DNA from: a virus
Lineage: Duplodnaviria > Caudoviricetes
Length of the DNA: 63,125 bases
Reading direction: 5' to 3' (one strand)
IMG/VR virus record: IMGVR_UViG_3300006114_000002
Coordinates: 1 to 63,125 of that record
The notes beneath the pieces are model-generated. The model saw nothing but the letters and a program-made list of their open reading frames with translations, did no database searches and was not told the origin of the DNA. This document shows, piece after piece, positions 111 to 63,125 of the stretch (position 1 is the first letter of the stretch; each line of letters starts with the position of its first letter). The translations under genes were made by a program, and so were the position numbers.

Positions 111-228
111 TTTTAGGGGGTTCGCTTTTTAGGCAGGAAATTTTAACGAGCTTGCGACCTGAGTGGGTCCCCCGCCCCCGCCTGCCGACGGGACCCTAAA
201 CGGTGGTGCGGTGCAACAAAAAGGCCCA

Positions 229-348
229 GCACCACATTGGTGCACACGTGCACCGCTTTAGTGCATGCCTGCACCACAATGGTGCACTGGCGCACTGGCA
301 TAGTGCACGCCCGCACCGATACGGTGCACAGGTGCACTGGCTTGGTGC
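229..348. promoter_or_regulatory. Six tandem NtrC-type sites GCAC-N7-GTGC at exact 21-bp period
   Basis: Sites start at 229, 250, 271, 292, 313, 334; half site at 355; 270-286 is TGCACCACAATGGTGCA, matching the NtrC consensus TGCACCA-N3-TGGTGCA. Confidence 0.75.
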
Positions 349-371
349 AGGTGTGCACCGGTGTGGCTCTA

Positions 372-496
372 AGGGTTTACCCTATCAGGGTCTACCCCTA
401 GTTGTTGGACATCCTACCTGGTAATGAGAATCATTCGCATCTGGCCGGGAGCCAGAGCAGCACTTAGGGTAAACCCTAGGTTGTTGGACATCCTAT
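372..496. promoter_or_regulatory. Repeated palindromic operator-like motifs of unknown regulators
   Basis: AGGGTTTACCCT 372-383, AGGGTCTACCCC 387-398, TAGGGTAAACCCTA 465-478; GTTGGACATCCTAY 404-417 and 483-496. Confidence 0.55.
420..441. promoter_or_regulatory. Fur box
   Basis: GGTAATGAGAATCATTCGC matches GATAATGATAATCATTATC at 15/19. Confidence 0.7.
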
Positions 497-498
497 CT

Positions 499-520
499 GG
501 TAATGAGACGCATTCGCATT
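499..520. promoter_or_regulatory. Fur box (second copy)
   Basis: GGTAATGAGACGCATTCGC, 13/19 to consensus; part of a 79-bp-period duplication. Confidence 0.55.
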
Positions 521-536
521 TAGCCACTCAGGCAAG

Positions 537-583
537 GCACCACTTTGGTGCACGGGCGGATTGGCAGGGCACCACTTTGGTGC
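537..583. promoter_or_regulatory. Pair of NtrC-type sites 32 bp apart
   Basis: GCACCACTTTGGTGC at 537-551 and 569-583. Confidence 0.7.
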
Positions 584-3379: not shown

Positions 3380-3668
3380 ACTATACTCAAACTCACTATT
3401 CAACAGGCTCTATCAGCCGAGACTGATAGGGAGACCGATAAGGTACGAGAGCCGACTAAAAAAGTATCCCAAAAATAAAAAGTTACCAATCATACAGAGT
3501 CAGCGTAAAATATGCCAGACTCGAGCCAATTTGATCCTAGGGCGTCGTATGCTGCTAAGTGTCCGAGGCCTGAGATTCAAACACTCGGCATCGATATTTT
3601 TAAGGAGACTACGTGCCAAAAGACAAAAACAGCCTGAGCGATTATCTTCGTTCCCTGTACGGTATTGA
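3372..3668 (+). CDS. Basic hypothetical protein
   Basis: GGAGG RBS; overlaps sigma gene start. Confidence 0.4.
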   Translation: MTRLYSNSLFNRLYQPRLIGRPIRYESRLKKYPKNKKLPIIQSQRKICQTRANLILGRRMLLSVRGLRFKHSASIFLRRLRAKRQKQPERLSSFPVRY

Positions 3669-4185
3669 CCCCCTCTCTGTCGAGGAGGAGGTCAGGCTCG
3701 CCGGGCTGATACAGGCCGGCGATGAGGATGCGCTAGATAAACTCGTGACCCATAATCTGAGGTTTGTCGTATCTATACTTAAGGAATTAGCCTCGTGGCA
3801 CCATGGATCGATACCGATCGAGGACTTGGTTGGTTATGGTAATTATTGGCTACTGTATGCAGCCAAAAGGTGGACGCCGACAAACGGTGCCCGGTTCGCC
3901 ACGTACGCCAAGCAGTTTATACTTAAGGGCGTCCGGAGGGATGTCGACAACACGTCCAACATTATCCGTCTACCGGTCAACGTCAGCGAGGAGATCAAGC
4001 GCATGAGGTACGCAGAGAGAATCCTATCCCAGAGTCTGGGGCGTGAGCCCCGCCCGGGTGAGGTGGCGCAGCACATGGGTATCGGTGAGGAGCGGGTGCA
4101 GCAGCTGCAGGGTTATTTAATCAGGGAGCCGAGCAGTCTCGAGGCTCACAGGCAGGATCAATTAACAGAGGAGAGCGAGGAGTGA
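3613..4185 (+). CDS. Phage sigma70-family factor, regions 1.2, 2 and 3 only (no region 4)
   Basis: YLRSL..PLS.EEE..LA, LVTHNLRFVV, EDLV..GN..L, RFATYA, IIRLPV, LGREP; ends at EPSSLE (start of 3.2 linker); AAGGAG RBS. Confidence 0.88.
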   Translation: MPKDKNSLSDYLRSLYGIDPLSVEEEVRLAGLIQAGDEDALDKLVTHNLRFVVSILKELASWHHGSIPIEDLVGYGNYWLLYAAKRWTPTNGARFATYAKQFILKGVRRDVDNTSNIIRLPVNVSEEIKRMRYAERILSQSLGREPRPGEVAQHMGIGEERVQQLQGYLIREPSSLEAHRQDQLTEESEE

Positions 4186-4523: not shown

Positions 4524-4759
4524 ACAGCGGGGAGATGATATTCACGGCACTAAGTATATTTTTGGCGGCACTCGGACTCTCGGGTCTCGTGCTGAGGATC
4601 CACATTTGGTACAGGAACAGGAATGAGCGAGATTGAAAAACTTAGGCATGCTGCAAGGAGCGCACTCGAGGCGCTAGAGAACCCCTCTACGGTATCGGTG
4701 CAGCACGCACTGTGGCTGCTGAGGGAAATTTTAAACGATAAGAGCGAGGATATAGATCC

Positions 4760-10693: not shown

Positions 10694-10912
10694 ATGCCGA
10701 AGGCTAAAAACAAGATTAAGTTAGAGTTTGCACCCGGATGTTTTGATGACATCGGTGATGACGTGACTCAGGAGGATATCGATCAGATGGTCGCATACAT
10801 CACTCAAGCGATAGCGGATGGGAGTATTATGGAGATGTCGGAGCCGCTCTCGGATGAGGAGGCGGAGAAACTATTTCAGGATATGGAAAATAAAAGGAAT
10901 ACAAGGCAATGA
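10694..10912 (+). CDS. Acidic hypothetical protein
   Basis: Coupled ORF. Confidence 0.65.
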   Translation: MPKAKNKIKLEFAPGCFDDIGDDVTQEDIDQMVAYITQAIADGSIMEMSEPLSDEEAEKLFQDMENKRNTRQ

Positions 10913-12348: not shown

Positions 12349-12559
12349 AGAATTCCTTTTCATGGAGCCAAACGACTTCGATGCAGCAATTGTTGGAGTG
12401 ACTTCATTCGATCCTGTCGTCGTCTATGATGCCCACAAGATCATCGAGATCTTAGAGTCGCAGGGCATGTGTAACAGCGAGGCTCTCCGATATTTTGATT
12501 GTAATATTGCCGGGGCGTACATGGGCGAGAAGACTCCGGTTTATATTTGGGGAGTCTGA
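12296..12559 (+). CDS. Conserved hypothetical protein
   Basis: FDAAIVGV..VVYD..K..EA..YF..NI.GAYMGE.TP. Confidence 0.7.
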   Translation: MSTTSLKRQYVMEEYPDEEFLFMEPNDFDAAIVGVTSFDPVVVYDAHKIIEILESQGMCNSEALRYFDCNIAGAYMGEKTPVYIWGV

Positions 12560-12563
12560 CGAA

Positions 12564-13412
12564 GTGAAGGCATGCTCTAAGTGCGGCAAACAAAAGCCGC
12601 TGACTGAGTTTAGCAAAGATAGCCGTATTAAAAATGGTTTTCGGTCAAAATGTAAAACTTGCGAAGCGGCCTATCGTGCCACAAATAGGGAGCGATATGC
12701 AGCCTATCGTGCCACAAATAGGGAGCGACATGCAGCCTATCGTGCCGCAAATAGGGAGCGATATGCAGCCTACTACGCCGCCAACATTGACAAATTTAAC
12801 GCACGTAGTGCAAAACGCCATGCAGCTAAATTGCAGCGGACACCGCCATGGCTAACACAGGAACACTTGGAGCAGATAGCCAATTTTTACAAATTGTCTA
12901 GACACATGACAGAAATAACTGGCGAACAATACCACGTTGATCATATAATCCCGCTACAGGGCGATACAGTATCCGGGCTCCACGTACCCTGGAACCTGCA
13001 GGTCATACCGGCTAAAATCAACTTAAGCAAACGTAATAAACTAATGGATAATTATGCTGACCAAACAAAATCTACACCCGTACCAGTTGAGCATGATCAA
13101 ACTGGGTACGAGCGTGCCAAATCTGGGGCTATTCATGGAGCCGGGGCTGGGCAAGACAGTGACAGCCCTCACGATTATTGCAGAGAGTCCAACGGGCAAG
13201 ACTCTGATTGTTGCCCCGAAGAAAGTTGCAGAGTCAGTATGGAGTCAAGAGTGTCAGAAGTGGCAACATCTACAGCACCTGAAGGTAGTCAAGGTCATGG
13301 GGACGCCACAACAGCGCCTGTCAGCTTTAAAAAGTCAAAGCGACGTGTACGTCGTCAACGTCGAGAATCTCCCATGGGTACTCGACCAGATGGGCAGTTA
13401 TCCCTTTTTTGA
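12564..13412 (+). CDS. HNH homing endonuclease (Zn ribbon + HNH); frame runs on 359 nt into the helicase gene
   Basis: CSKC..CKTC; YHVDHIIPL..GLHVPWNLQ..N..KRN; internal 33-nt tandem repeat (AAYRATNRERY). Confidence 0.85.
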   Translation: MKACSKCGKQKPLTEFSKDSRIKNGFRSKCKTCEAAYRATNRERYAAYRATNRERHAAYRAANRERYAAYYAANIDKFNARSAKRHAAKLQRTPPWLTQEHLEQIANFYKLSRHMTEITGEQYHVDHIIPLQGDTVSGLHVPWNLQVIPAKINLSKRNKLMDNYADQTKSTPVPVEHDQTGYERAKSGAIHGAGAGQDSDSPHDYCRESNGQDSDCCPEESCRVSMESRVSEVATSTAPEGSQGHGDATTAPVSFKKSKRRVRRQRRESPMGTRPDGQLSLF

Positions 13413-14391
13413 TTACCTGATAATAGACGAGTCAAGCCGATTCAAGGACCCCAGCACGAAACGGTTTAAGGCTATTAAGAAATACTTAGCCAAATTTGAT
13501 AAGCGCATCATACTGACGGGTACACCGACGCCTCAGGGTCTGGCCGACCTATGGTCACAGGTCGGGATACTTGACCTCGGCAAGAGACTGGAGACCTCGA
13601 TAACCAAATTCAGGGCCAAGTACATGTTTGCGGCGGATCGAAATCGTCACACGGGAGTCGTATACAAGTGGGACCTAAACCCGGGAGCAGCGCAGATCAT
13701 TCTTGACAAAATCTCGGACATCTGCATATCACTCAAGGCGGAGGACTATCTGCAACTTCCGAAGTTGAGCAAGATCTACCACAAGATCGAGATCGATAAA
13801 GACGTGCGTCAGCAGTATGCGAGGATGAAGAAGAGCATGGTCCTCGATATTGGTGAGGAGCAGATCACGGCACCCACGGCTGCGACCCTCGTCAACAAGC
13901 TGCTGCAGCTAACGTCTGGGGCCGTCTACGGCGAGGATGGATGGAGCCACGTGCATGACGCCAAGATAGACTACCTGGAGGAGCTCCTGGAGTCCTCGAG
14001 TGCCCCTACGCTACTCTTCTACCACTTCAAGCACAGCAGGGAGCGTATACTGGAGAGATTCCCGCACGCCGTGGAGTTGAGTGAGGGCAAGATACAAGAC
14101 TGGCGTGATGGCAAAATAAAGCTCCTGATAGCACACCCGCAGTCTGGCGGTATCGGACTCAATCTGCAGTGCAATGTCGGCGATCTGGCTCAGTTGGTCT
14201 GGTTTGACCTCCCGTGGTCGAGTGAGAATTTTGTGCAGGCGAATGCGAGAATTTATCGTCAGGGCCAGGAGAAGCCGGTAGTGATACACCACCTGACTGT
14301 ACCGGACACCATCGATGAGAGGGTGGTTGACGTACTTGAGGGTAAGATTAAAATTCAGGATGCCCTACTTGACGAGTTAAAATTAACATGA
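13054..14391 (+). CDS. SNF2-family helicase
   Basis: LHPYQ, PGLGKT, IIDESS, LTGTP, GLNLQ, QANARIYRQGQ. Confidence 0.92.
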   Translation: MLTKQNLHPYQLSMIKLGTSVPNLGLFMEPGLGKTVTALTIIAESPTGKTLIVAPKKVAESVWSQECQKWQHLQHLKVVKVMGTPQQRLSALKSQSDVYVVNVENLPWVLDQMGSYPFFDYLIIDESSRFKDPSTKRFKAIKKYLAKFDKRIILTGTPTPQGLADLWSQVGILDLGKRLETSITKFRAKYMFAADRNRHTGVVYKWDLNPGAAQIILDKISDICISLKAEDYLQLPKLSKIYHKIEIDKDVRQQYARMKKSMVLDIGEEQITAPTAATLVNKLLQLTSGAVYGEDGWSHVHDAKIDYLEELLESSSAPTLLFYHFKHSRERILERFPHAVELSEGKIQDWRDGKIKLLIAHPQSGGIGLNLQCNVGDLAQLVWFDLPWSSENFVQANARIYRQGQEKPVVIHHLTVPDTIDERVVDVLEGKIKIQDALLDELKLT

Positions 14392-14702
14392 AGCACATAA
14401 TCAGTTATACTGTCAATGCGGCACACCCTCGCCTATCTGACGAGGAGCCGGACCTACTTGAGCAGGACGATAGTCAGCCGGAGGGCTCGACACACTCCCA
14501 GGAGGGTTGGCTCCCGTGGAGTGCTGAGGACTTGATGGATATCCGTAAGATTATCGAGCACCAGATGCCTCGCAAGGAGCGTGAGATTATAGAGGCGTAT
14601 TTAGCCGGGCTAAACAACAAGAGCCTCGGCGTGACAGAGAAGTACTGGAGGTACCACTTTGAGAGGGGTATCAAATTTATTAAAAAGGAGCTTGAGATAT
14701 GA
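14388..14702 (+). CDS. Free-standing sigma70 region-4-like protein (putative late activator or second sigma subunit)
   Basis: Acidic linker then MPRKEREIIEAYLAGL..LGVT....R....RGIKFIKKEL, resembling LPEREREVL...GL...LGIS...R....RAL.KLR..L. Confidence 0.6.
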   Translation: MKHIISYTVNAAHPRLSDEEPDLLEQDDSQPEGSTHSQEGWLPWSAEDLMDIRKIIEHQMPRKEREIIEAYLAGLNNKSLGVTEKYWRYHFERGIKFIKKELEI

Positions 14703-16053: not shown

Positions 16054-16069
16054 AACAGTGGAAAACTCA

Positions 16070-16456
16070 ATGACAGTGAGCAAATACGATCCTAAGATGT
16101 TGGAGACCATGATCGAGATGGGTCGCCAGGGTGCGTCCCAGAAGATGATCTGGTCCGAGCTCGGGATATCCAAATCGACGGCGGACGCATGGCGCAAAAA
16201 ATACCCCGACTTTGCCGATGCACTGGATCTGGCACTCGTCCATAGCCAGGCCTACTGGGAGCGACTGATGCTCGCCAACGCCGAGAACAAAAATTTCAAC
16301 ACACGCATGGTGGAGGTTGCAGTACGTGGCCAGTTTCAGCAGGACTACCGTGAGCGTATGGATATCAAGCAGGACATCAACCAGAAGGTCGAGGTCGACT
16401 TTAATGCAGCCGTGACCGACCTGATCGCCCAACTCAAGAAGGCCGGCGAAGAGTAA
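16070..16456 (+). CDS. terS: Terminase small subunit-like HTH protein
   Basis: SKYDP...G.S...I..ELGIS.ST...W.K.YPDFA.A...A...SQAYWE, typical TerS N-terminus. Confidence 0.7.
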   Translation: MTVSKYDPKMLETMIEMGRQGASQKMIWSELGISKSTADAWRKKYPDFADALDLALVHSQAYWERLMLANAENKNFNTRMVEVAVRGQFQQDYRERMDIKQDINQKVEVDFNAAVTDLIAQLKKAGEE

Positions 16457-18436: not shown

Positions 18437-18510
18437 GCCCCATTAGTTAAACGGCATAATGCTAGATTTGTAATCTTGAGTTGGTGGTTCAATTCCATCA
18501 TGGGGCACCA
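18437..18510 (+). tRNA. tRNA-Thr (UGU)
   Basis: GCCCCAT/ATGGGGC acceptor stem, loop TT-TGT-AA, T-arm GGTGG-TTCAATT-CCATC, encoded CCA; one T.T mismatch in anticodon stem. Confidence 0.85.
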
Positions 18511-28577: not shown

Positions 28578-29549
28578 TTAACCACCATTTATAGGATTGC
28601 CAAACGCATCTGTAAGACCGGAATACGAGTACGACGAACCATCTGGGGAGGTGCCAGATACAGATGATTGACTTGTATCTACGGATGAATTAGCAGCTTG
28701 ATTGGCGGCTGTCTGGGAGGCGTCCTCGGGAACAGATGTAGTTGCCCCGGGTACCCCTGGACTACTAGCGCCCGATACCAATCCAGACAAACCACTTTTT
28801 ACACCAAGCGTTTTCAGTAAAGAATCTAACCCATTTGTCCCTCCAGTAACCAACGAACCCAGGGCACCTAATTGAGCGATTGGGCTCGGTGTACCTACAG
28901 TCGCAGCCACCGTACCAGGCTTGACAGCATTCAGGACGTTAGCCTGACCCTGCAGCCCCATCGATGGAGCCTGCATCTGGAATGTTCCGGTGTTGAGTGC
29001 AGAGTTTACCTCCTGCAATCCTGTTGATCCCAGACCGGTACCCGCCTGTACTCCAGTCTGTTGATTCTGGAGTGCCGAAGTATCCTGCTGCTGAGTCAGG
29101 TTGGCGAGTGCATCCGCCTTGGCCTTGTCGACTGCCGTCTCGCCACGCAGACTGCCAAAGTTACCTGATCCAATGTTGGCGGCCTCTGGCGTCGCAGTGA
29201 TGTTGGGCATGATCTGGTTAAGGTAGCCAGTCTGGGCATTGAATAGGCCGCCCATGGCCGTGTTGGGGTTGCCGACAACCTGTGGATTGCCGTTTGCATC
29301 CGTCGTAGTCATCCACGGGTTTACTGCACCCGAGCCGATCGAGCTCAGGATGCCCTGCCCCGTCGTGAATGCGTTGTTGTTGCCGGGGGTGAACATGTTG
29401 ACTGCGGCCTGCCCCGCCGTCTGATTAGGTGCGGGTGCGTTTGCGGTGACGGCCTGCCCAGCCAGGTTTTGCTGCGCAGCGTCGTACCACGACGGTAGTG
29501 TGGTTGTTACTGTCGACGATGTCGATGTTAAGTCTGATAATCCGGCCAT
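28578..29549 (-). CDS. Gly/Ala/Gln-rich ejection (pilot) protein
   Basis: Composition, LPSWY and FGSLRG motifs, position after tail genes. Confidence 0.6.
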   Translation of the reverse strand: MAGLSDLTSTSSTVTTTLPSWYDAAQQNLAGQAVTANAPAPNQTAGQAAVNMFTPGNNNAFTTGQGILSSIGSGAVNPWMTTTDANGNPQVVGNPNTAMGGLFNAQTGYLNQIMPNITATPEAANIGSGNFGSLRGETAVDKAKADALANLTQQQDTSALQNQQTGVQAGTGLGSTGLQEVNSALNTGTFQMQAPSMGLQGQANVLNAVKPGTVAATVGTPSPIAQLGALGSLVTGGTNGLDSLLKTLGVKSGLSGLVSGASSPGVPGATTSVPEDASQTAANQAANSSVDTSQSSVSGTSPDGSSYSYSGLTDAFGNPINGG

Positions 29550-30118
29550 TATGCCCTCGTTTCAAATGTATTGCTTTTACGCAAATTTTCTATTGCTGTT
29601 AATATTTGTAAGTTTCCAGGAACATGTAGCCCACAAACATTTTTTCCTCTTAACGGAACAATATGGTCTACGTGATACCATTCCCCCAGCAATTTACTTA
29701 ATTCTTGCGCCTCAATATAAAAAGATTCTATGTCTTTTAAATCTACCCAAGAAGGAGTTGCTTGTAATTTATCCGCTTTATATTTTGCCTTAAGAGCGTT
29801 TCGTTTTCCAGGATTATTTTTTCGCCACTCTCTAGATGCTAATTTTTTTAATTCTCTTTCTTTTTCAATATTTTCTTGATAATACTGTTTTCTTTTTTGT
29901 TTTAATTTTTCAGCATTTTTAACGTATTTTTCTTTAGTTTTTATTTTAGTTTGTTTTGGGTTTTTGTGGTATCGTATTTTTGCATTTATTTTAACGCATT
30001 CAATACAGGACCCGGTTAAAGCATGCCGCTCCGACAAATGCCCACGTTTGCAAGGTTTTTCTGAAAAATAAGTTTTTGACCCATTTTGAATCGCATCATA
30101 CCTAGCCCCACGATCCAT
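29549..30118 (-). CDS. HNH homing endonuclease
   Basis: CKRGH..CIEC; ATPSW..YHVDHIVPLRGKNVCGLHVPGNLQ..N..KSN; AT-rich insertion. Confidence 0.88.
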   Translation of the reverse strand: MDRGARYDAIQNGSKTYFSEKPCKRGHLSERHALTGSCIECVKINAKIRYHKNPKQTKIKTKEKYVKNAEKLKQKRKQYYQENIEKERELKKLASREWRKNNPGKRNALKAKYKADKLQATPSWVDLKDIESFYIEAQELSKLLGEWYHVDHIVPLRGKNVCGLHVPGNLQILTAIENLRKSNTFETRA

Positions 30119-40699: not shown

Positions 40700-42517
40700 T
40701 TACCCTACCAATAGTCTGCGAGATATGCCGTTCGAGTCTGCAATAGTAATATATCCTGCCGGCGTAAGTGCGCCCGAGGTGTAAGTGCCAAACTGAACCA
40801 GCCCGGTGCCCTTGGGGACAAGTGCAACTCCGATGTTAGTATCAGATCCGTTTGCTGTCAATAATACGGGATTGCCTGTCGAAGATCCGTAACTTAATAC
40901 AAAGTTAACTGCGGATGAATTGCTTCCTATACCAAATTGAGTAGCTCCCCCTGCAAAAAATAAATGTGCCCCATTTCCTTTCGTGCTGTAAGTTAAATAA
41001 ATATTTGCATCAGAACCTGCTGAAGATATTACAGGGCCATTGTTAGTTGTGTTTCCAGTAACCTGCAAATAGTTAACTGCTAACGCTGTACTTGCTATAA
41101 AAAATTGAGGATCTCTAAAATTATTTGAGTAATAACCAATTGCCCCGTTACCTTTTGAGCTGGTTACAATTGAAATATTTGTATCACTACCTTGTGCTAA
41201 TAATGAAGGTCCACTACCCGTAGCTGCACCCGACACTTGTAAGTAGTTAACTGCTGATGCTGCGCTTGACACAAAAAATTGTGGGTTGCTATAGCTATTT
41301 GAGTAATAGCCAATTGATCCATTACCCTTTGAAGTTATTGAAAACCCAATATTGGTATCACTACCTTGTACAGATAAACCGGGGGAATTACCCGTAGTTG
41401 CCGCTGTTGTCTGCAAATAATTAACTGCTGATGCTGTGCTTGTCACGTTAAACTGAAGTGCGCCCACTCCGTTTTGGAAAGCTGAATAATTATTTGATGT
41501 TAGATAAACACCGCCCGTCCCTTTTGCTTGGAGTATAACGGGAATATTTGTATCACTACCTTGTGCAGATAATGAAGGCGCATTTCCAGTTGTATTCCCT
41601 GACGCTTGAATGTAATTTACCGCACTAGAAACAGTCGGAACGTATAAAGACTGCGACCCCGATGCACCACCCAGATAAGAGTTACCTTTTACTGTGAAGT
41701 TTGTACCATCAAAGGTCAAGTTGGTTGAGGATTGGAATGCGCTCGTACCGTTGCCGTACGGGATGTAATTGGCTGTAAGTGATGTCAATCCAGTACCGCC
41801 GCCGTTAACCCCGAGTGTGCCAAACGCAGGGGCACCTGCTCCTGCGCTTATCAAAGGCTGCCCACTTGTCCCAGCAGCACTATAGGCGTGCGCTGTACCA
41901 GTACCGTACCCGACGCCTCCGGCTGTTGGCGTGGCCGTAGAGTTGGTTCCACCGGCAGAGATGGGGAGCGTGCCGGTCGTCAGTGCAGATGTTGAGGTTG
42001 CATAGACCGCACCATTGGTAGAGAATGAGGTTAATCCAGTCCCACCGTTTGTAGTGGCCAGAGTGCCGCCCAGAGTAATTGCGCCAGTGGTAGCCGTATT
42101 TGGTGTAAACCCGGTAGTCCCTGCGCTGAAGGTGCTGACGAAGTTACCCGTCAAAGCCGATGTCGGGATCGTCGTTGATGCCGTCATGGTACCCGTACCG
42201 TTGCCGTAAACGTAGCCAGTCAACGTCGTTGCACCAGTACCGCCAGATGCCGCACCGAGCGTACCAGCCAGCGTCACTGCGCCCGTGGTTGATGTCGATG
42301 GCGTCAGGCCCGATAAAGATGTCTGGAACGATGATACGTTGACGTTGCCTGCCTTGCTGGCAATAACCTGGACGACGCCAGAGTTGTCTTTGTAGTACAG
42401 CTTTCCGTCCGTGATATTGATCGCAAGCTCACCACTGACCAGATTGGCGGCCAGCGGTGCACTCGCCGCAGTTGTGCTGTAGTAGTGTTGCAGTGGTGTA
42501 AACCCTGACTGTGCCAT
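40700..42517 (-). CDS. Tail fibre protein
   Basis: GELAIN.TDGKLYYK N-terminus, GGTG repeats, five ~53-aa AVNY.Q..GSDTNI..KG.G repeats. Confidence 0.8.
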   Translation of the reverse strand: MAQSGFTPLQHYYSTTAASAPLAANLVSGELAINITDGKLYYKDNSGVVQVIASKAGNVNVSSFQTSLSGLTPSTSTTGAVTLAGTLGAASGGTGATTLTGYVYGNGTGTMTASTTIPTSALTGNFVSTFSAGTTGFTPNTATTGAITLGGTLATTNGGTGLTSFSTNGAVYATSTSALTTGTLPISAGGTNSTATPTAGGVGYGTGTAHAYSAAGTSGQPLISAGAGAPAFGTLGVNGGGTGLTSLTANYIPYGNGTSAFQSSTNLTFDGTNFTVKGNSYLGGASGSQSLYVPTVSSAVNYIQASGNTTGNAPSLSAQGSDTNIPVILQAKGTGGVYLTSNNYSAFQNGVGALQFNVTSTASAVNYLQTTAATTGNSPGLSVQGSDTNIGFSITSKGNGSIGYYSNSYSNPQFFVSSAASAVNYLQVSGAATGSGPSLLAQGSDTNISIVTSSKGNGAIGYYSNNFRDPQFFIASTALAVNYLQVTGNTTNNGPVISSAGSDANIYLTYSTKGNGAHLFFAGGATQFGIGSNSSAVNFVLSYGSSTGNPVLLTANGSDTNIGVALVPKGTGLVQFGTYTSGALTPAGYITIADSNGISRRLLVG

Positions 42518-59897: not shown

Positions 59898-59934
59898 TAC
59901 AACTACTTATGCACAAAATTTGTTTTATTCGCCC
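59898..59934 (-). promoter_or_regulatory. Late promoter (bipartite)
   Basis: GGGC-N15-TGTGCATAAGTAG-TTGT-A. Confidence 0.78.
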
Positions 59935-61373
59935 TAGACTGCGTAGGGGTTGTAAAACTTCTTTCTGCGATCGTCGGCGTAGTCGTAGTCCCTGGCTGGT
60001 AGAGGATCCAGCTGGAGCCATCCCGAGTCCCTCAGTACACGCAGTGCCTGGCTCAGTGAGTCCACGTAGTCATCGTGCCCTCCCGCCTCTGGGAACGAGC
60101 AGACCTGCCTCATGAATCGTTTGGCCCATGGTGCTGGCTCTCCCGGCTTCTCTGGATCCTCCGGTATGTAGACCTTGCCCTTGGCTATCAGGGGTGCGAC
60201 GATGTTGATGCGCTGCACTTTGTCGGCCTTTCCGGGGTTGTATGCCCTCACCGGGACGCCAGAACCCTGCAGCTCCTGCACCAAAGATATCCCTGCAGAC
60301 TTATCCTCCATCAGTATCAGGTCCGCCTTTCTTCCTTTTGCGAAGGTGTTGTCGGCGCCGTAGACGACCTCCTTGAAGTCGGATACGACCCTCCTCCTGA
60401 GTGTCGGGTAGGCCAGGTGATCATCCCAGGCATCCAGGAGCATGACGCACGTCCCGCCATCCAGCTGCTCAAAGACTCCCCATATCTCGCACGCCGTCGG
60501 GTCGTTGTGTGTCTTCTCGCTCGTCGCAGGATCGTATGATGCGATGACGTACTCCAGGTCTGGCGTTGGTTTGTTTGCGGGCCACATCTTGAACCACCTC
60601 CGCTTGACGATGCCTGCATCCTCGGGGTCCAGGATCTCTCCATAGATCTCCTGCTTGCCCAGGTCTGTACCCTCGTACGTCTCCAGCTGCTTAAAAAACG
60701 TCTTGGATAGGTTTGCCTTGTTATCGTACGAGCTGGCGTTGACGACGTACACGTCTCCACCAATCTTGCCCTCATTCAAGTCGACTATCAACTCCCTCGG
60801 TTTGGGTGTCGTCGTGATGATCTGCTGTACTCGGCTGATCTTTGGATCCTTCAATCGAAGCGTGAACTGCACGCCATCATAGGCGTCATCCAGGTACTCA
60901 AATGCGCACAGCTCATCAAACCACGCACCGTGAAACTGTTTACCCCGGTAGCGTTCAGGCTCGGATGCCGGTATCCCCTGTATGATGGACCCGTTTATGA
61001 GGGTGATCTCAAAGAGAGACTTGTTGTAGTCCTTGATCAGGGACTTGGGTATGATGTTGAGGAGCCCCGAGTCGCCCTCGAAGCACGTCGCCCTAATATC
61101 GTTCGATGTCGGTGCCGTCACGAGCCAGCGTGTCCCTGGGTGCCTCCATGCCCTGATCCCGATCCAGTGGCTCGCAGTGTGAGTCTTGCCCGATCCACGC
61201 CCTGCGAGCATCAGAAACGTATCATACTCGCCATCCTCGGGCTCCCTCTGGTGGGGGAGGGCCTGCATGGCCCACCTGACCTGCCACAGCGTCGCATCCA
61301 GCTCCGGTTTTGGCCAGTGTTTGTTGGCCTTTGCGAACTGGGACAGCAGCTGCTCCTGTTTTTTTGTCAGCAT
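59934..61373 (-). CDS. terL: Terminase large subunit
   Basis: AGRGSGKT, WFDE, TTTP, SYD.A, EDKSAG, HDDYVDS. Confidence 0.95.
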   Translation of the reverse strand: MLTKKQEQLLSQFAKANKHWPKPELDATLWQVRWAMQALPHQREPEDGEYDTFLMLAGRGSGKTHTASHWIGIRAWRHPGTRWLVTAPTSNDIRATCFEGDSGLLNIIPKSLIKDYNKSLFEITLINGSIIQGIPASEPERYRGKQFHGAWFDELCAFEYLDDAYDGVQFTLRLKDPKISRVQQIITTTPKPRELIVDLNEGKIGGDVYVVNASSYDNKANLSKTFFKQLETYEGTDLGKQEIYGEILDPEDAGIVKRRWFKMWPANKPTPDLEYVIASYDPATSEKTHNDPTACEIWGVFEQLDGGTCVMLLDAWDDHLAYPTLRRRVVSDFKEVVYGADNTFAKGRKADLILMEDKSAGISLVQELQGSGVPVRAYNPGKADKVQRINIVAPLIAKGKVYIPEDPEKPGEPAPWAKRFMRQVCSFPEAGGHDDYVDSLSQALRVLRDSGWLQLDPLPARDYDYADDRRKKFYNPYAV

Positions 61374-62347
61374 AGCGTTATAAACCCCTCACCGATGCAG
61401 AAAAACCCGCCGGTATCGACAAAAATGCGTTTTTTTGGCTCAATTTTTGTAATTTTGCGTATAAATCTGCGTCTGAATCGATTTGCGGGGTCTTTTTTGT
61501 GCTGATTCTCGATCAGTGGTATCCCCGTCCTGAAAAATAGCCTAAATTTTGCCCCCGTCTTCTTCTCGACCATGACTGTCCTGATCCCGAGCGACTCCAC
61601 AACGCCCTGTATCCGCTTAACCAGCGAGTAGTCACGGCTCATGAACCTGAATACGTCCATCTTTTTGTCGTAGGAGTGCCTTTTGTCAAAAAATATGCCC
61701 CTCAGTAGGTCAATCCTCTGATGCTCTGAGGATATAAGGTACTCATCCGGTATCGTGTGCTGCTTCTCTGGGTACTTTGTCAAAAAAGCGTGCTGTATGT
61801 TGGGCCTGAGCTCCAGGTGTATCCTGTCGTACTCCCTCTTTACACGCTTGGCGTTGTAGCCGTACCTCCTGAAGTGGTTGACGTAGCTGTTGACCATGTG
61901 TTTCTCGACGGACAGGTTGGGTGTGTTGGATGTCCTCGTGAACCATACCCCGACTATGAAGGGGGGTACCGGCAAATTTACCTCCGGCAGCTGTATAGGT
62001 TGGGTATTTTTTACAGAGAAACGGTACCGGTTGTCTGCCTCAGGCATTGTCAGGCCAGCCTCCAGTATCTCGTCAATCGTCTTGATCATCCCCTTGGCTT
62101 TGTACCCCCTCGATCGTATGTTGCGTATGTTCAGGTTCTCTACGGGTAGCGTCGTGTTGCCGTCCGCCAGTATCGATACACCATCATCAAACACGACCTC
62201 ATAGCAGTCGCCCTCATCATAGACCTGGATCGTCTTGATCTCCTGGGGCATTCCCATCTCGTCAAAGACATAGTCTCCAGGCTTGAGGAGGCCTGCGAGC
62301 GTCCAGCCCTCGGATGTTATGACGGGCGTATTGACCTCAATCGCCAT
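61367..62347 (-). CDS. Free-standing intein-like protein (Hint + LAGLIDADG), splicing residues degenerate
   Basis: AI..NTP..T..GW...G.LK.GD.VFD..G.P; CYEV.F.DG..I.AD; LPVPP...G.W; IP.EYL..S..QR..LL.G; ends FITLC-stop. Confidence 0.75.
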   Translation of the reverse strand: MAIEVNTPVITSEGWTLAGLLKPGDYVFDEMGMPQEIKTIQVYDEGDCYEVVFDDGVSILADGNTTLPVENLNIRNIRSRGYKAKGMIKTIDEILEAGLTMPEADNRYRFSVKNTQPIQLPEVNLPVPPFIVGVWFTRTSNTPNLSVEKHMVNSYVNHFRRYGYNAKRVKREYDRIHLELRPNIQHAFLTKYPEKQHTIPDEYLISSEHQRIDLLRGIFFDKRHSYDKKMDVFRFMSRDYSLVKRIQGVVESLGIRTVMVEKKTGAKFRLFFRTGIPLIENQHKKDPANRFRRRFIRKITKIEPKKRIFVDTGGFFCIGEGFITLC

Positions 62348-62618
62348 TCTGCTTACCCAGTACCCAGGTATTGAGATACTTCCCGATAGGGTCACGTATC
62401 TGTCTCTGTATATTCTCAGGGAGGGACTGTATCTGTACCTCCTTCGTCAACATCATGCGGTACTTCATGTACTGCAGTATGGTCTTGGGAAAGACGTGCT
62501 CGGGTATATCGACCTCGTAGAAGTTTGTCGATGTCCACAGGAAGACACGAAAGCCTTTCACGTTCTGCTTTCGATCCTCGAGTGCCCCCTGAATTTGGTA
62601 TGCGTATTCTTGATCCAT
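62337..62618 (-). CDS. Hypothetical protein, probably leaderless
   Basis: ATG coincides with predicted +1 of late promoter. Confidence 0.65.
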   Translation of the reverse strand: MDQEYAYQIQGALEDRKQNVKGFRVFLWTSTNFYEVDIPEHVFPKTILQYMKYRMMLTKEVQIQSLPENIQRQIRDPIGKYLNTWVLGKQNGD

Positions 62619-62654
62619 ACACCCACTAATGCAAACTCGTAACCATTGCAGCCC
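62618..62654 (-). promoter_or_regulatory. Late promoter (bipartite) for terL operon
   Basis: GGGC-N15-TTTGCATTAGTGG-GTGT-A. Confidence 0.75.
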
Positions 62655-62894
62655 CTTTTTAAAAAATTAAAATTAAGACCCGCATAAACATTGGCCTGGA
62701 CACGGTGTGACGGGGTTTGCGTGGCGTCTTTATTAGTTCTAGCTGTTTTTAGGCTATTTTTAGGACTCTTAAAAAGACGTAGAATGGCTCTGGCATTGGC
62801 TCCAGAGTACCGTGACGGGGTTCCAACCCGCATGCCTGTTGGGTTTGGCTGGGATTTCCACTCCCTTATCTTCAATCCTAGACGCTGGAGAAGC

Positions 62895-63050
62895 GCATGG
62901 ATAAAGGCTTTGACTAGGTTGACTAACTCTTTTTATTATTATTATTATTATTATTATTAAAAAATAAAAAATAAATATAGAAGCAGTATAGTGGGATTTT
63001 GACAATAATCCTAGCCAACCTAGTCAGAGGCGCATGAATAAAGGCTCTCC
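62895..63050. other. Putative replication origin B, inverted homolog of origin A
   Basis: TGACTAGGT iteron, (ATT)n AT-rich core, TCCTAGCCA/ACCTAGTCA; 63032-63050 is an 18/19 reverse complement of 7739-7757. Confidence 0.65.
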
Positions 63051-63125
63051 TTGCGGCGTGGTCTTTTTACAACACTCATCGATCCTAGCCAATCCGGTCA
63101 TTTTGCCAAATTTTGCAAAAAAAAA
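63016..63125. repeat. Terminal direct repeat (copy of 1-110)
   Basis: Identity with window start. Confidence 0.95.

Follow-up and report, generated by a model that had tools for sequence, protein, structure and literature searches.

Predicted NtrC-type binding sites arrayed in the control region of a lake phage genome

The DNA considered here is a complete IMG/VR virus record of 63,125 bases (IMGVR_UViG_3300006114_000002; Caudoviricetes), analysed over its whole length and referred to below as the window. Its sole long gene-free stretch (62619-63016 and 1-839) lies between two divergent gene arms and contains, between positions 229 and 583, an array of eight short palindromes that have the sequence of the box bound by NtrC, the global nitrogen regulator of bacteria, at NtrC-like spacings. 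On their sequence these are predicted NtrC sites, and they are best read as sites for the host protein that would act as a nitrogen-status input or sink. The more specific proposal, that the array consists of sites for a host NtrC-type regulator placed in a phage control region and exerting its effect in cis, is one that we regard as evenly poised.

Nine matches to the dyad GCAC-N7-GTGC (GCACNNNNNNNGTGC) occur in the window, eight of them inside 229-583 and the ninth at 41877, a number never reached in 100 dinucleotide-preserving shuffles (mean 1.32, maximum 5). The count confirmed what had been described in the original prediction, namely six dyads at an exact 21-bp period and two more 32 bp apart (Table 1), giving five intervals of 21 bp, or two helical turns, and one of 32 bp, or three turns. 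The odd-numbered members of the six are the stronger NtrC-type boxes, and the one at 270-286 is a perfect match to the NtrC consensus TGCACCAnnnTGGTGCA. The six dyads are carried by three diverged 42-bp tandem units that are 72-78% identical to one another. When the three units are aligned, all 16 columns of the GCAC/GTGC cores are invariant, as against 11 of the 26 other columns (Fisher one-sided p = 7.8e-5), in keeping with the earlier observation of variable spacers around a conserved motif and phase. The pattern is that of a recent 42-bp triplication after which selection has preserved the half-sites and the rest of each unit, centres and spacers alike, has diverged; to the earlier description it adds that the exact 21-bp period was inherited through tandem duplication. 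A decayed seventh site follows the six, and a natural G>A variant at position 360 within it gives GCACCA. Contigs from four lake sequencing runs show 10 variant positions in 1-600 and none within 229-348, where about two would be expected by chance, so that the lack of variants there is not significant. None of the four open reading frames (ORFs) that run across the array matches a Pfam family at E <= 0.1, consistent with a non-coding region.

Sites were scored by the number of matches to the 14 specified positions of the 17-bp dyad TGCACCAnnnTGGTGCA, with a cut-off of at least 12 in the window. Six of the eight array sites reach this score, one of them perfectly, in agreement with the match to the NtrC consensus originally claimed; they are also the only six such matches in the whole window, every one lying within 228-584, whereas 30 block-shuffled versions averaged 0.3 matches and never had more than 2. 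In a control region of Escherichia coli K-12 around glnALG (4052000-4062000), a score of at least 11 of 14 returned three sites only, a pair upstream of glnA and one between glnA and glnL. The members of the glnA pair are 32 bp apart, so that the spacing given in the original prediction for the glnAp2 enhancer is seen in the E. coli sequence and equals that of the phage pair at 537 and 569. A consensus pooled from 62 non-redundant dyads of the window and of its relatives by large terminase (TerL) reads aTGCACCAnnnTGGTGCAtt; it agrees with the NtrC consensus quoted in section 20 of PMC8743547 and is close to that in Table 1 of PMC4987338.

The phage array is like the E. coli glnAp2 enhancer in its 17-bp dyad, in the two strong sites 32 bp apart, and in a group of adjacent sites, some stronger than others, that share one face of the helix. 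It is unlike that enhancer in having no sigma-54 promoter in reach, in its six sites at 21 bp, and in its location in a lytic-type phage genome.

A TerL scan of IMG/VR returned 569 relatives, the best 80 of which (80-100% identity) were fetched with their flanks. Most of the contigs compared are fragments, 10-77% complete, and the box counts cover the 31 TerL relatives with the intergenic region covered. At least two boxes are present in 10 of these, one in 11 and none in 10, always with a conserved GGGTCCC...GGGNCCC element on one side of the boxes and the early genes on the other. Related phages had been proposed as the place to look for the array: the boxes do recur there, in variable number, and in unrelated phages as well, whereas the exact 21-bp phasing is specific to the phage of the window. 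Among 114 non-redundant neighbouring pairs of boxes in the relatives, the spacings peak at 40-42 bp (36 pairs), with smaller peaks at 49-50 bp (14) and at 32 bp (5). They differ from those of the window because a second palindrome, AGTGAGYRCTCACT, usually accompanies the box, the two together making up a unit of about 42 bp. A Rayleigh test for helical phasing across the family is inflated by the shared ancestry of these 41-42-bp composite units, and was not used.

One pair of relatives, L132 and L123, is 92-100% identical from the conserved element through the 93-amino-acid first late gene (p93), a hypervariable 342-amino-acid ORF (p342) and the terminase. L132 has three units of about 42 bp with boxes, and L123 has the second palindrome AGTGAGYRCTCACT alone, with no box. 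This difference between otherwise nearly identical phages argues that the boxes are an accessory module that is gained and lost, rather than a signal for replication origin or packaging that goes with the terminase genes. The gene for the GP88-family protein, the first early gene of the window, was tried as a marker for the array and discarded, as 80 GP88 loci showed no intergenic similarity to the window and only 6 of the 80 have two or more dyads. The divergent intergenic region of Caulobacter phage RW, the nearest isolate (TerL identity 43%), contains no boxes.

The same box is found in phages of other lineages. When 2.9 million viral contigs were scanned for pairs of perfect boxes at most 34 bp apart, 51 contigs were obtained, six of which belong to four other lineages (G008 to G011, GC content 35-47%) that have nothing in common with the 84 proteins of the window beyond a 23% TerL match. 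In G011, a canonical sigma-54 promoter, TGGCACgacctTTGCT, is preceded by a 32-bp pair with box centres at -196 and -164, and is followed by genes for the small terminase (TerS), TerL and the portal protein. In G009, a 32-bp pair lies upstream of two consensus sigma-70 promoters and TerS, in G008 the boxes alternate with perfect DnaA boxes, and G010 has ten boxes in a divergent gap. Furthermore, a fragment of a larger phage that was found through the phased pattern (L007) has four boxes at 21 bp and two more, located some 290-490 bp upstream of a canonical sigma-54 promoter, with GGTAATGAGAAT-type repeats alongside, as in the window. The occurrence of one box in unrelated phages, with sigma-54 promoters nearby and no protein in common, is most simply explained by a host factor. 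To our knowledge, NtrC is the only factor known to use the TGCACCAnnnTGGTGCA box. In L005 (1415-1600) and L008 (1501-1620), two giant-virus-like contigs with an Erv1/Alr gene, six to seven tandem TGCACCAAAACGGTGCA units at 20-21 bp stand upstream of a conserved gene whose product starts MNRCEYCG.

Sigma-54 promoters were sought with a weight matrix built from 45 promoters of the relatives. The best match in the intergenic region of the window scores 4.5 bits, against a minimum of 13.3 bits for the training promoters, and no match to the sigma-54 consensus (GG-N10-GC, TGGCAC-N5-TTGCW) with one mismatch or fewer lies there. The original statement that no strong sigma-54 promoter is visible therefore stands, and classical enhancer action is unsupported in this genome. 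In the 169 fetched loci, exact matches to TGGCAY-N5-TTGCW are present in 39, where by our own arithmetic about two would be expected by chance, and unspecified positions also follow the sigma-54 consensus, with G after CAC in 34 of 45. Ten of the 31 covered relatives have one to three such matches each in their intergenic region, and all of these read towards the late/packaging operon except for two face-to-face extras (in L093 and L293), in a tally that left out matches inside the 342-amino-acid gene and elsewhere in the loci. Because the relatives have sigma-54 promoters and no phage activator, a host enhancer-binding protein must serve them. Canonical promoters of the form cTGGCAYGrTTCTTGCW are present in L093, L095, L099-L106, L109, L111, L112, L140, L163, L293, L295, L301, L305, L319 and L329. 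Other phage contigs, fetched as GP88 loci (L022, L028, L042 and L053), have such promoters upstream of their GP88 genes. Exact TGGCAY-N5-TTGCW is also found on the sense strand inside the p342 gene, as one allele, in L290, L307, L308, L309, L322, L328 and L336, where it may be an internal sigma-54 promoter or a coding coincidence.

How host NtrC might act on such an array can be outlined as follows. In a nitrogen-limited host, whether the limitation precedes the infection or is induced by it, phosphorylated NtrC dimers would load cooperatively and occupy one face of the six phased sites and of the 32-bp pair. The six sites and the pair bracket about 190 bp carrying two promoter-like repeats, and the NtrC oligomer would form an operator or roadblock, or a loop over this stretch, so that transcription through the region would be tied to nitrogen status. 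Operator, roadblock or loop is proposed as the mode of action because the phage lacks a sigma-54 promoter here. With eight sites in each copy of its genome, it would additionally draw NtrC away from host promoters, as a sink. NtrC acts as a repressor at the sigma-70 promoters glnAp1 and glnL, and an NtrC box upstream of glnL is seen in the scored E. coli K-12 sequence; as in the mode proposed for the phage, the box there works without sigma-54. The E. coli cases are unlike the phage in being single operators that overlap a mapped promoter, in contrast to eight sites that bracket promoter-like repeats. A wider proposal, which we consider doubtful, is that unrelated freshwater lineages wire the host NtrC/sigma-54 circuit ahead of their packaging and late genes, with a promoter-less eight-site trap or roadblock as its form in the window. 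The nitrogen drain of infection would then act through phospho-NtrC as a clock or gate for late or origin-proximal transcription; in this phage the sigma-54 promoter would have been lost, or would never have been present, and the boxes would have been amplified into the phased eight-site array. Should the trap or roadblock exist, it would be a virus-borne decoy for a bacterial global regulator, with a high capacity for NtrC.

Several points weigh against host NtrC as the binder. The presence of NtrC and sigma-54 in the host is an assumption, and binding is predicted. The window itself has no sigma-54 promoter, as described above. In the other phages only 19 of 46 non-redundant sigma-54 promoters have a box within -520 to +80. 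The centres of these boxes fall mainly into two groups, -44 to -53 and -1 to +19, and only a few are found between -108 and -150; the textbook position of an enhancer is -100 to -150. The fixed distance between the box and AGTGAGYRCTCACT looks like a phage-specific composite element. Of the 51 contigs with a perfect pair, 45 belong to the family of the window, with p93 and p342 adjacent, a distribution that fits a family-specific phage protein too. Moreover, two contigs that carry an Erv1/Alr gene, and on that account resemble giant viruses of eukaryotes, have arrays of TGCACCAAAACGGTGCA at 20-21 bp; NtrC is impossible there, so another binder can use such arrays. A search of 185,579 bacterial species for three NtrC-like dyads at 21-bp phase gave none among 70 hits, all of which are plain 21-bp tandem repeats from diverse phyla without NtrC-like arms, and the geometry of the array is therefore not a known NtrC enhancer design. 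Finally, as the contigs compared are mostly fragments, a shared phage-encoded binder could lie off-contig.

Such a binder would be a helix-turn-helix (HTH) dimer encoded by the phage, for instance an early regulator, whose specificity happens to be that of the NtrC DNA-binding domain or was copied from it, and which would cover the DNA along a single face and so regulate the divergent promoters. We hold this explanation as tentative. The concentration of perfect pairs in one family, the fixed distance of the boxes from a second, family-specific palindrome and the similar arrays of giant-virus-like contigs all favour it, as does the state of the early genes, which are mostly unannotated and hypervariable, with the first 3 kb of early genes in the window having no homologue in five relatives. 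The search for the protein itself drew a blank, among mostly fragmentary contigs with mostly unannotated early genes. Searches for the sigma-54 activator domain (PF00158) and for the NtrC/Fis HTH (PF02954, HTH_8) gave no match in the window and none in five relatives, of which two are complete, whereas the positive controls were detected in each of 14 reference genomes. Another candidate, the HTH protein at 10909 named in the original prediction as an alternative binder, proved unsupported: none of the five relatives has a homologue of it, although two of them, G006 and G007, carry boxes. Clustering of the early-flank ORFs gave no protein that tracks the boxes; the best cluster reaches 5 of the 11 box-bearing loci (window counted), and four of its five loci are one near-identical group. 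Conserved DNA-binding candidates, namely the primase-helicase including its C-terminal quarter, the TerS-like HTH protein (16058) and a 104-amino-acid protein (14388), do not group by box content, in that G007, with three boxes, is always closest to G005, with none. No ORF of at least 45 amino acids is common to more than two of six box-bearing genomes, apart from pseudo-ORFs that read through the arrays. It also counts against a phage protein that, in several phages, sigma-54 promoters needing a host activator lie among the boxes or downstream of them.

Host NtrC could also be the target without any effect in cis. As a pure DNA sponge, sites that multiply with the genome would titrate host NtrC and blunt the nitrogen-starvation programme. 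This we think unlikely, given that in every genome examined the boxes are confined to one control region beside promoters and origin-like elements, that several relatives and G011 have them beside sigma-54 promoters, and that a third of the relatives manage without them; in its favour, the number of sites was expanded by tandem duplication with the half-sites preserved, it rises to ten in G010, above the need of an enhancer, and the window offers no sigma-54 promoter as a target. Very improbable, in our judgement, is a structural element of replication or packaging, whether origin iterons, a centromere or a terminase recognition site. The packaging operon is indeed about 630 bp away from the array, and a stretch that is rich in A+T and flanked by repeats is a few hundred base pairs away; DnaA boxes alternate with the NtrC-type boxes in G008 and occur in the equivalent region of relative L102. 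The boxes, however, are missing in 10 of 31 relatives, short of the conservation that such an element calls for, and they differ between L123 and L132 in spite of the near-identity of p93, p342 and TerL; the primase-helicase and the TerS-like protein do not follow box content; ParA, ParB and ParM families were absent from the 41 ORFs scanned with PHROGs and the 46 scanned with Pfam; and the intergenic region of the window has no DnaA box, allowing one mismatch, and no IHF consensus. The known direct-repeat arrays of this kind, R1 parC with ParR and P4 ori/crr with the alpha protein, are bound by an element-encoded protein and are essential. They are like the phage array in having many short sites at helical-repeat spacing with a protein coating one face, and unlike it in that the phage sites are dyads with the consensus of a host regulator, are dispensable in a third of the relatives, and have no cognate phage protein that was found in the window or the relatives examined. 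That the array is a neutral tandem repeat, or a coding sequence of heptad repeats (21 bp being seven codons), with no function at the DNA level, is hardly tenable. Several frames are open across the array and the bacterial 21-bp matches are plain tandem repeats, but divergence is confined to the non-core columns, the dyads are palindromic, the ORFs across the array lack a Pfam family, and the relatives' spacings of 40, 41, 49 and 50 bp are not multiples of three.

Sites for host regulators are known from phage genomes, LexA and Fur in prophages being examples. Pho boxes and NtcA sites have been predicted in cyanophages, and for the predicted NtcA sites of marine cyanomyoviruses, which are the nearest published analogue, a coupling of phage expression to nitrogen stress was proposed (PMC3037559). 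The cyanomyovirus case is like that of the window in being a lytic phage genome with predicted sites for the host's global nitrogen regulator, and unlike it in that NtcA is a CRP-family protein whose GTA-N8-TAC sites are scattered at ordinary promoters, 1-16 per genome (PMC3037559), while the boxes of the window are of the NtrC family and stand together, in phase, within a single control region. In the open full text of PMC and bioRxiv, no paper was found that describes NtrC boxes or sigma-54 promoters for lytic-type phages. What is new in detail is the phased, promoter-less array and the spread of its boxes across a large family of lake phages. If host NtrC binds, an abundant group of lake phages, with its 569 TerL relatives in IMG/VR, would sense or manipulate the nitrogen-starvation response of its hosts, with a bearing on how nutrient limitation shapes viral lysis in freshwater, and the phased array would be a natural decoy or roadblock built from the site of an enhancer protein.

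Table 1. Features of the control region and of the genes on either side of it (positions in the window).
Feature	Position	Strand	Remarks
Six GCAC-N7-GTGC dyads, exact 21-bp period	229-348		Starts 229, 250, 271, 292, 313, 334
Three diverged 42-bp tandem units	226-267, 268-309, 310-351		Two dyads each
Decayed seventh site	355-369		Left half GCACCG retained, right half lost
Two further boxes	537-551, 569-583		Both GCACCACTTTGGTGC; 32 bp start to start
Two 60-nt direct repeats	387-446, 466-525	+	83% identical; between the box clusters
TAGGGTWWACCCTA palindrome pair	371-384, 465-478		Each just upstream of a 60-nt direct repeat
GGGTCCC...GGGACCC element	165-196		Position conserved in relatives
Weak sigma-54-like match	212-227	-	GGGCCTTTTTGTTGCA; GG-N10-GC kept, 2 mismatches
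A+T-rich run	about 62926-62975
18-nt inverted repeat	62908-62925, 63012-63029		Flanks the A+T-rich run; direct repeats also flank it
Two sigma-70-like matches	62910-62948	+	TTGACT-N18-TATTAT; pointing towards the array
First early gene, GP88 family (PF17338)	840-1487	+
Late/packaging operon start	59934-62618	-
First late gene, 93-amino-acid ORF (p93)	62337-62618	-
Hypervariable 342-amino-acid ORF (p342)	61367-62395	-
Large terminase (TerL)	59934-61373	-

The remainder of the control region is rich in smaller elements (Table 1). Each of the 60-nt direct repeats holds a weak sigma-70-like match (TGGACA-N17-AATCAT at 406-434 in one of them) and a AATGAGAATCATT-type palindrome, at 423-435 and 502-514, which resembles a Fur box. 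Palindromes of this type, together with runs of GGTAAT/GAGAAT hexamers, are found in the window, L092, L093, L127, L140, L293 and L007 (1590-1650). In L293 one such palindrome stands just downstream of a sigma-54 promoter, and they accompany NtrC-type boxes in two unrelated phages. The TAGGGTWWACCCTA palindrome is present in the intergenic regions of relatives too. The conserved element TTTGGGTCCYGT...GGGGCCCCA, of which the relatives have 38 distinct versions, lies between the boxes and the A+T-rich stretch, and each of its arms is itself GGG-N-CCC. As a stable RNA hairpin it was rejected, folding no better than shuffled sequences (z = -0.41). The weak sigma-54-like match GGGCCTTTTTGTTGCA adjoins box 1 and points towards the late operon; it is not conserved and scores far below the promoters of the relatives. 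On the other side of position 1, the segment 62908-63029, with its A+T-rich run, flanking repeats and sigma-70-like matches, looks like a putative origin and promoter region. Perfect DnaA boxes (TGTGGATAA) occur at about 4530-4570 of relative L102, in the equivalent control region, and are interleaved with NtrC-type boxes in the unrelated phage G008 (L341, 6270-6335), which suggests that the control regions of these two phages double as replication origins using host DnaA.

Positions 1-109 of the window are identical to 63017-63125, giving a circular map of 63,016 bp. The original prediction had also raised a protein coat for the entering DNA end, which found no support: the ends of the record are a 109-bp repeat of the assembly type and the contig of one run spans position 1, so that no physical DNA end is demonstrated beside the array. 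The plus-strand arm (840-23375) comprises early and replication genes, encoding GP88 (PF17338), a sigma factor (regions 1.2-3), a primase-helicase, a helicase, an exonuclease, SSB, ribonucleotide reductase and DNA polymerase A, and the minus-strand arm (62618 to 23376) comprises packaging, head, tail and lysis genes. A nucleotide search with positions 1-840 against isolated phages gave zero matches. Judged by TerL, the isolates closest to the phage are Caulobacter phages (43% identity), too distant for the host to be named from them.

Some observations concern individual genes. The 342-amino-acid ORF lies directly upstream of the large terminase gene and is 30-36% identical among relatives whose terminases are 80-89% identical; it has no Pfam match and partial matches to the PHROG annotated as terminase large subunit, and may be a fast-evolving packaging-specificity protein or an intein/homing-type protein. 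In the phage sigma factor (3613-4185), regions 1.2, 2 and 3 are present and Pfam shows no region 4, and the conserved 104-amino-acid protein (14388-14702) contains a region-4-like HTH, judged by eye only; the two may constitute a split sigma factor. A 132-amino-acid protein of the early arm (16058-16456) resembles a small terminase by eye (an HTH and a 'GIS..T...W' pattern) without a family match, and is kept in relatives at 49-61% identity although it is located far from the large terminase. A tRNA-Thr gene (anticodon TGT, 18437-18510) overlaps the listed TTG start (18481) of the ribonucleotide reductase large-subunit ORF, the real start of which is probably further downstream. Lastly, paralogues of the HNH/endonuclease VII type are encoded at 12495-13412 in the early arm and at 29549-30118 among the structural genes, and their positions differ in relatives.

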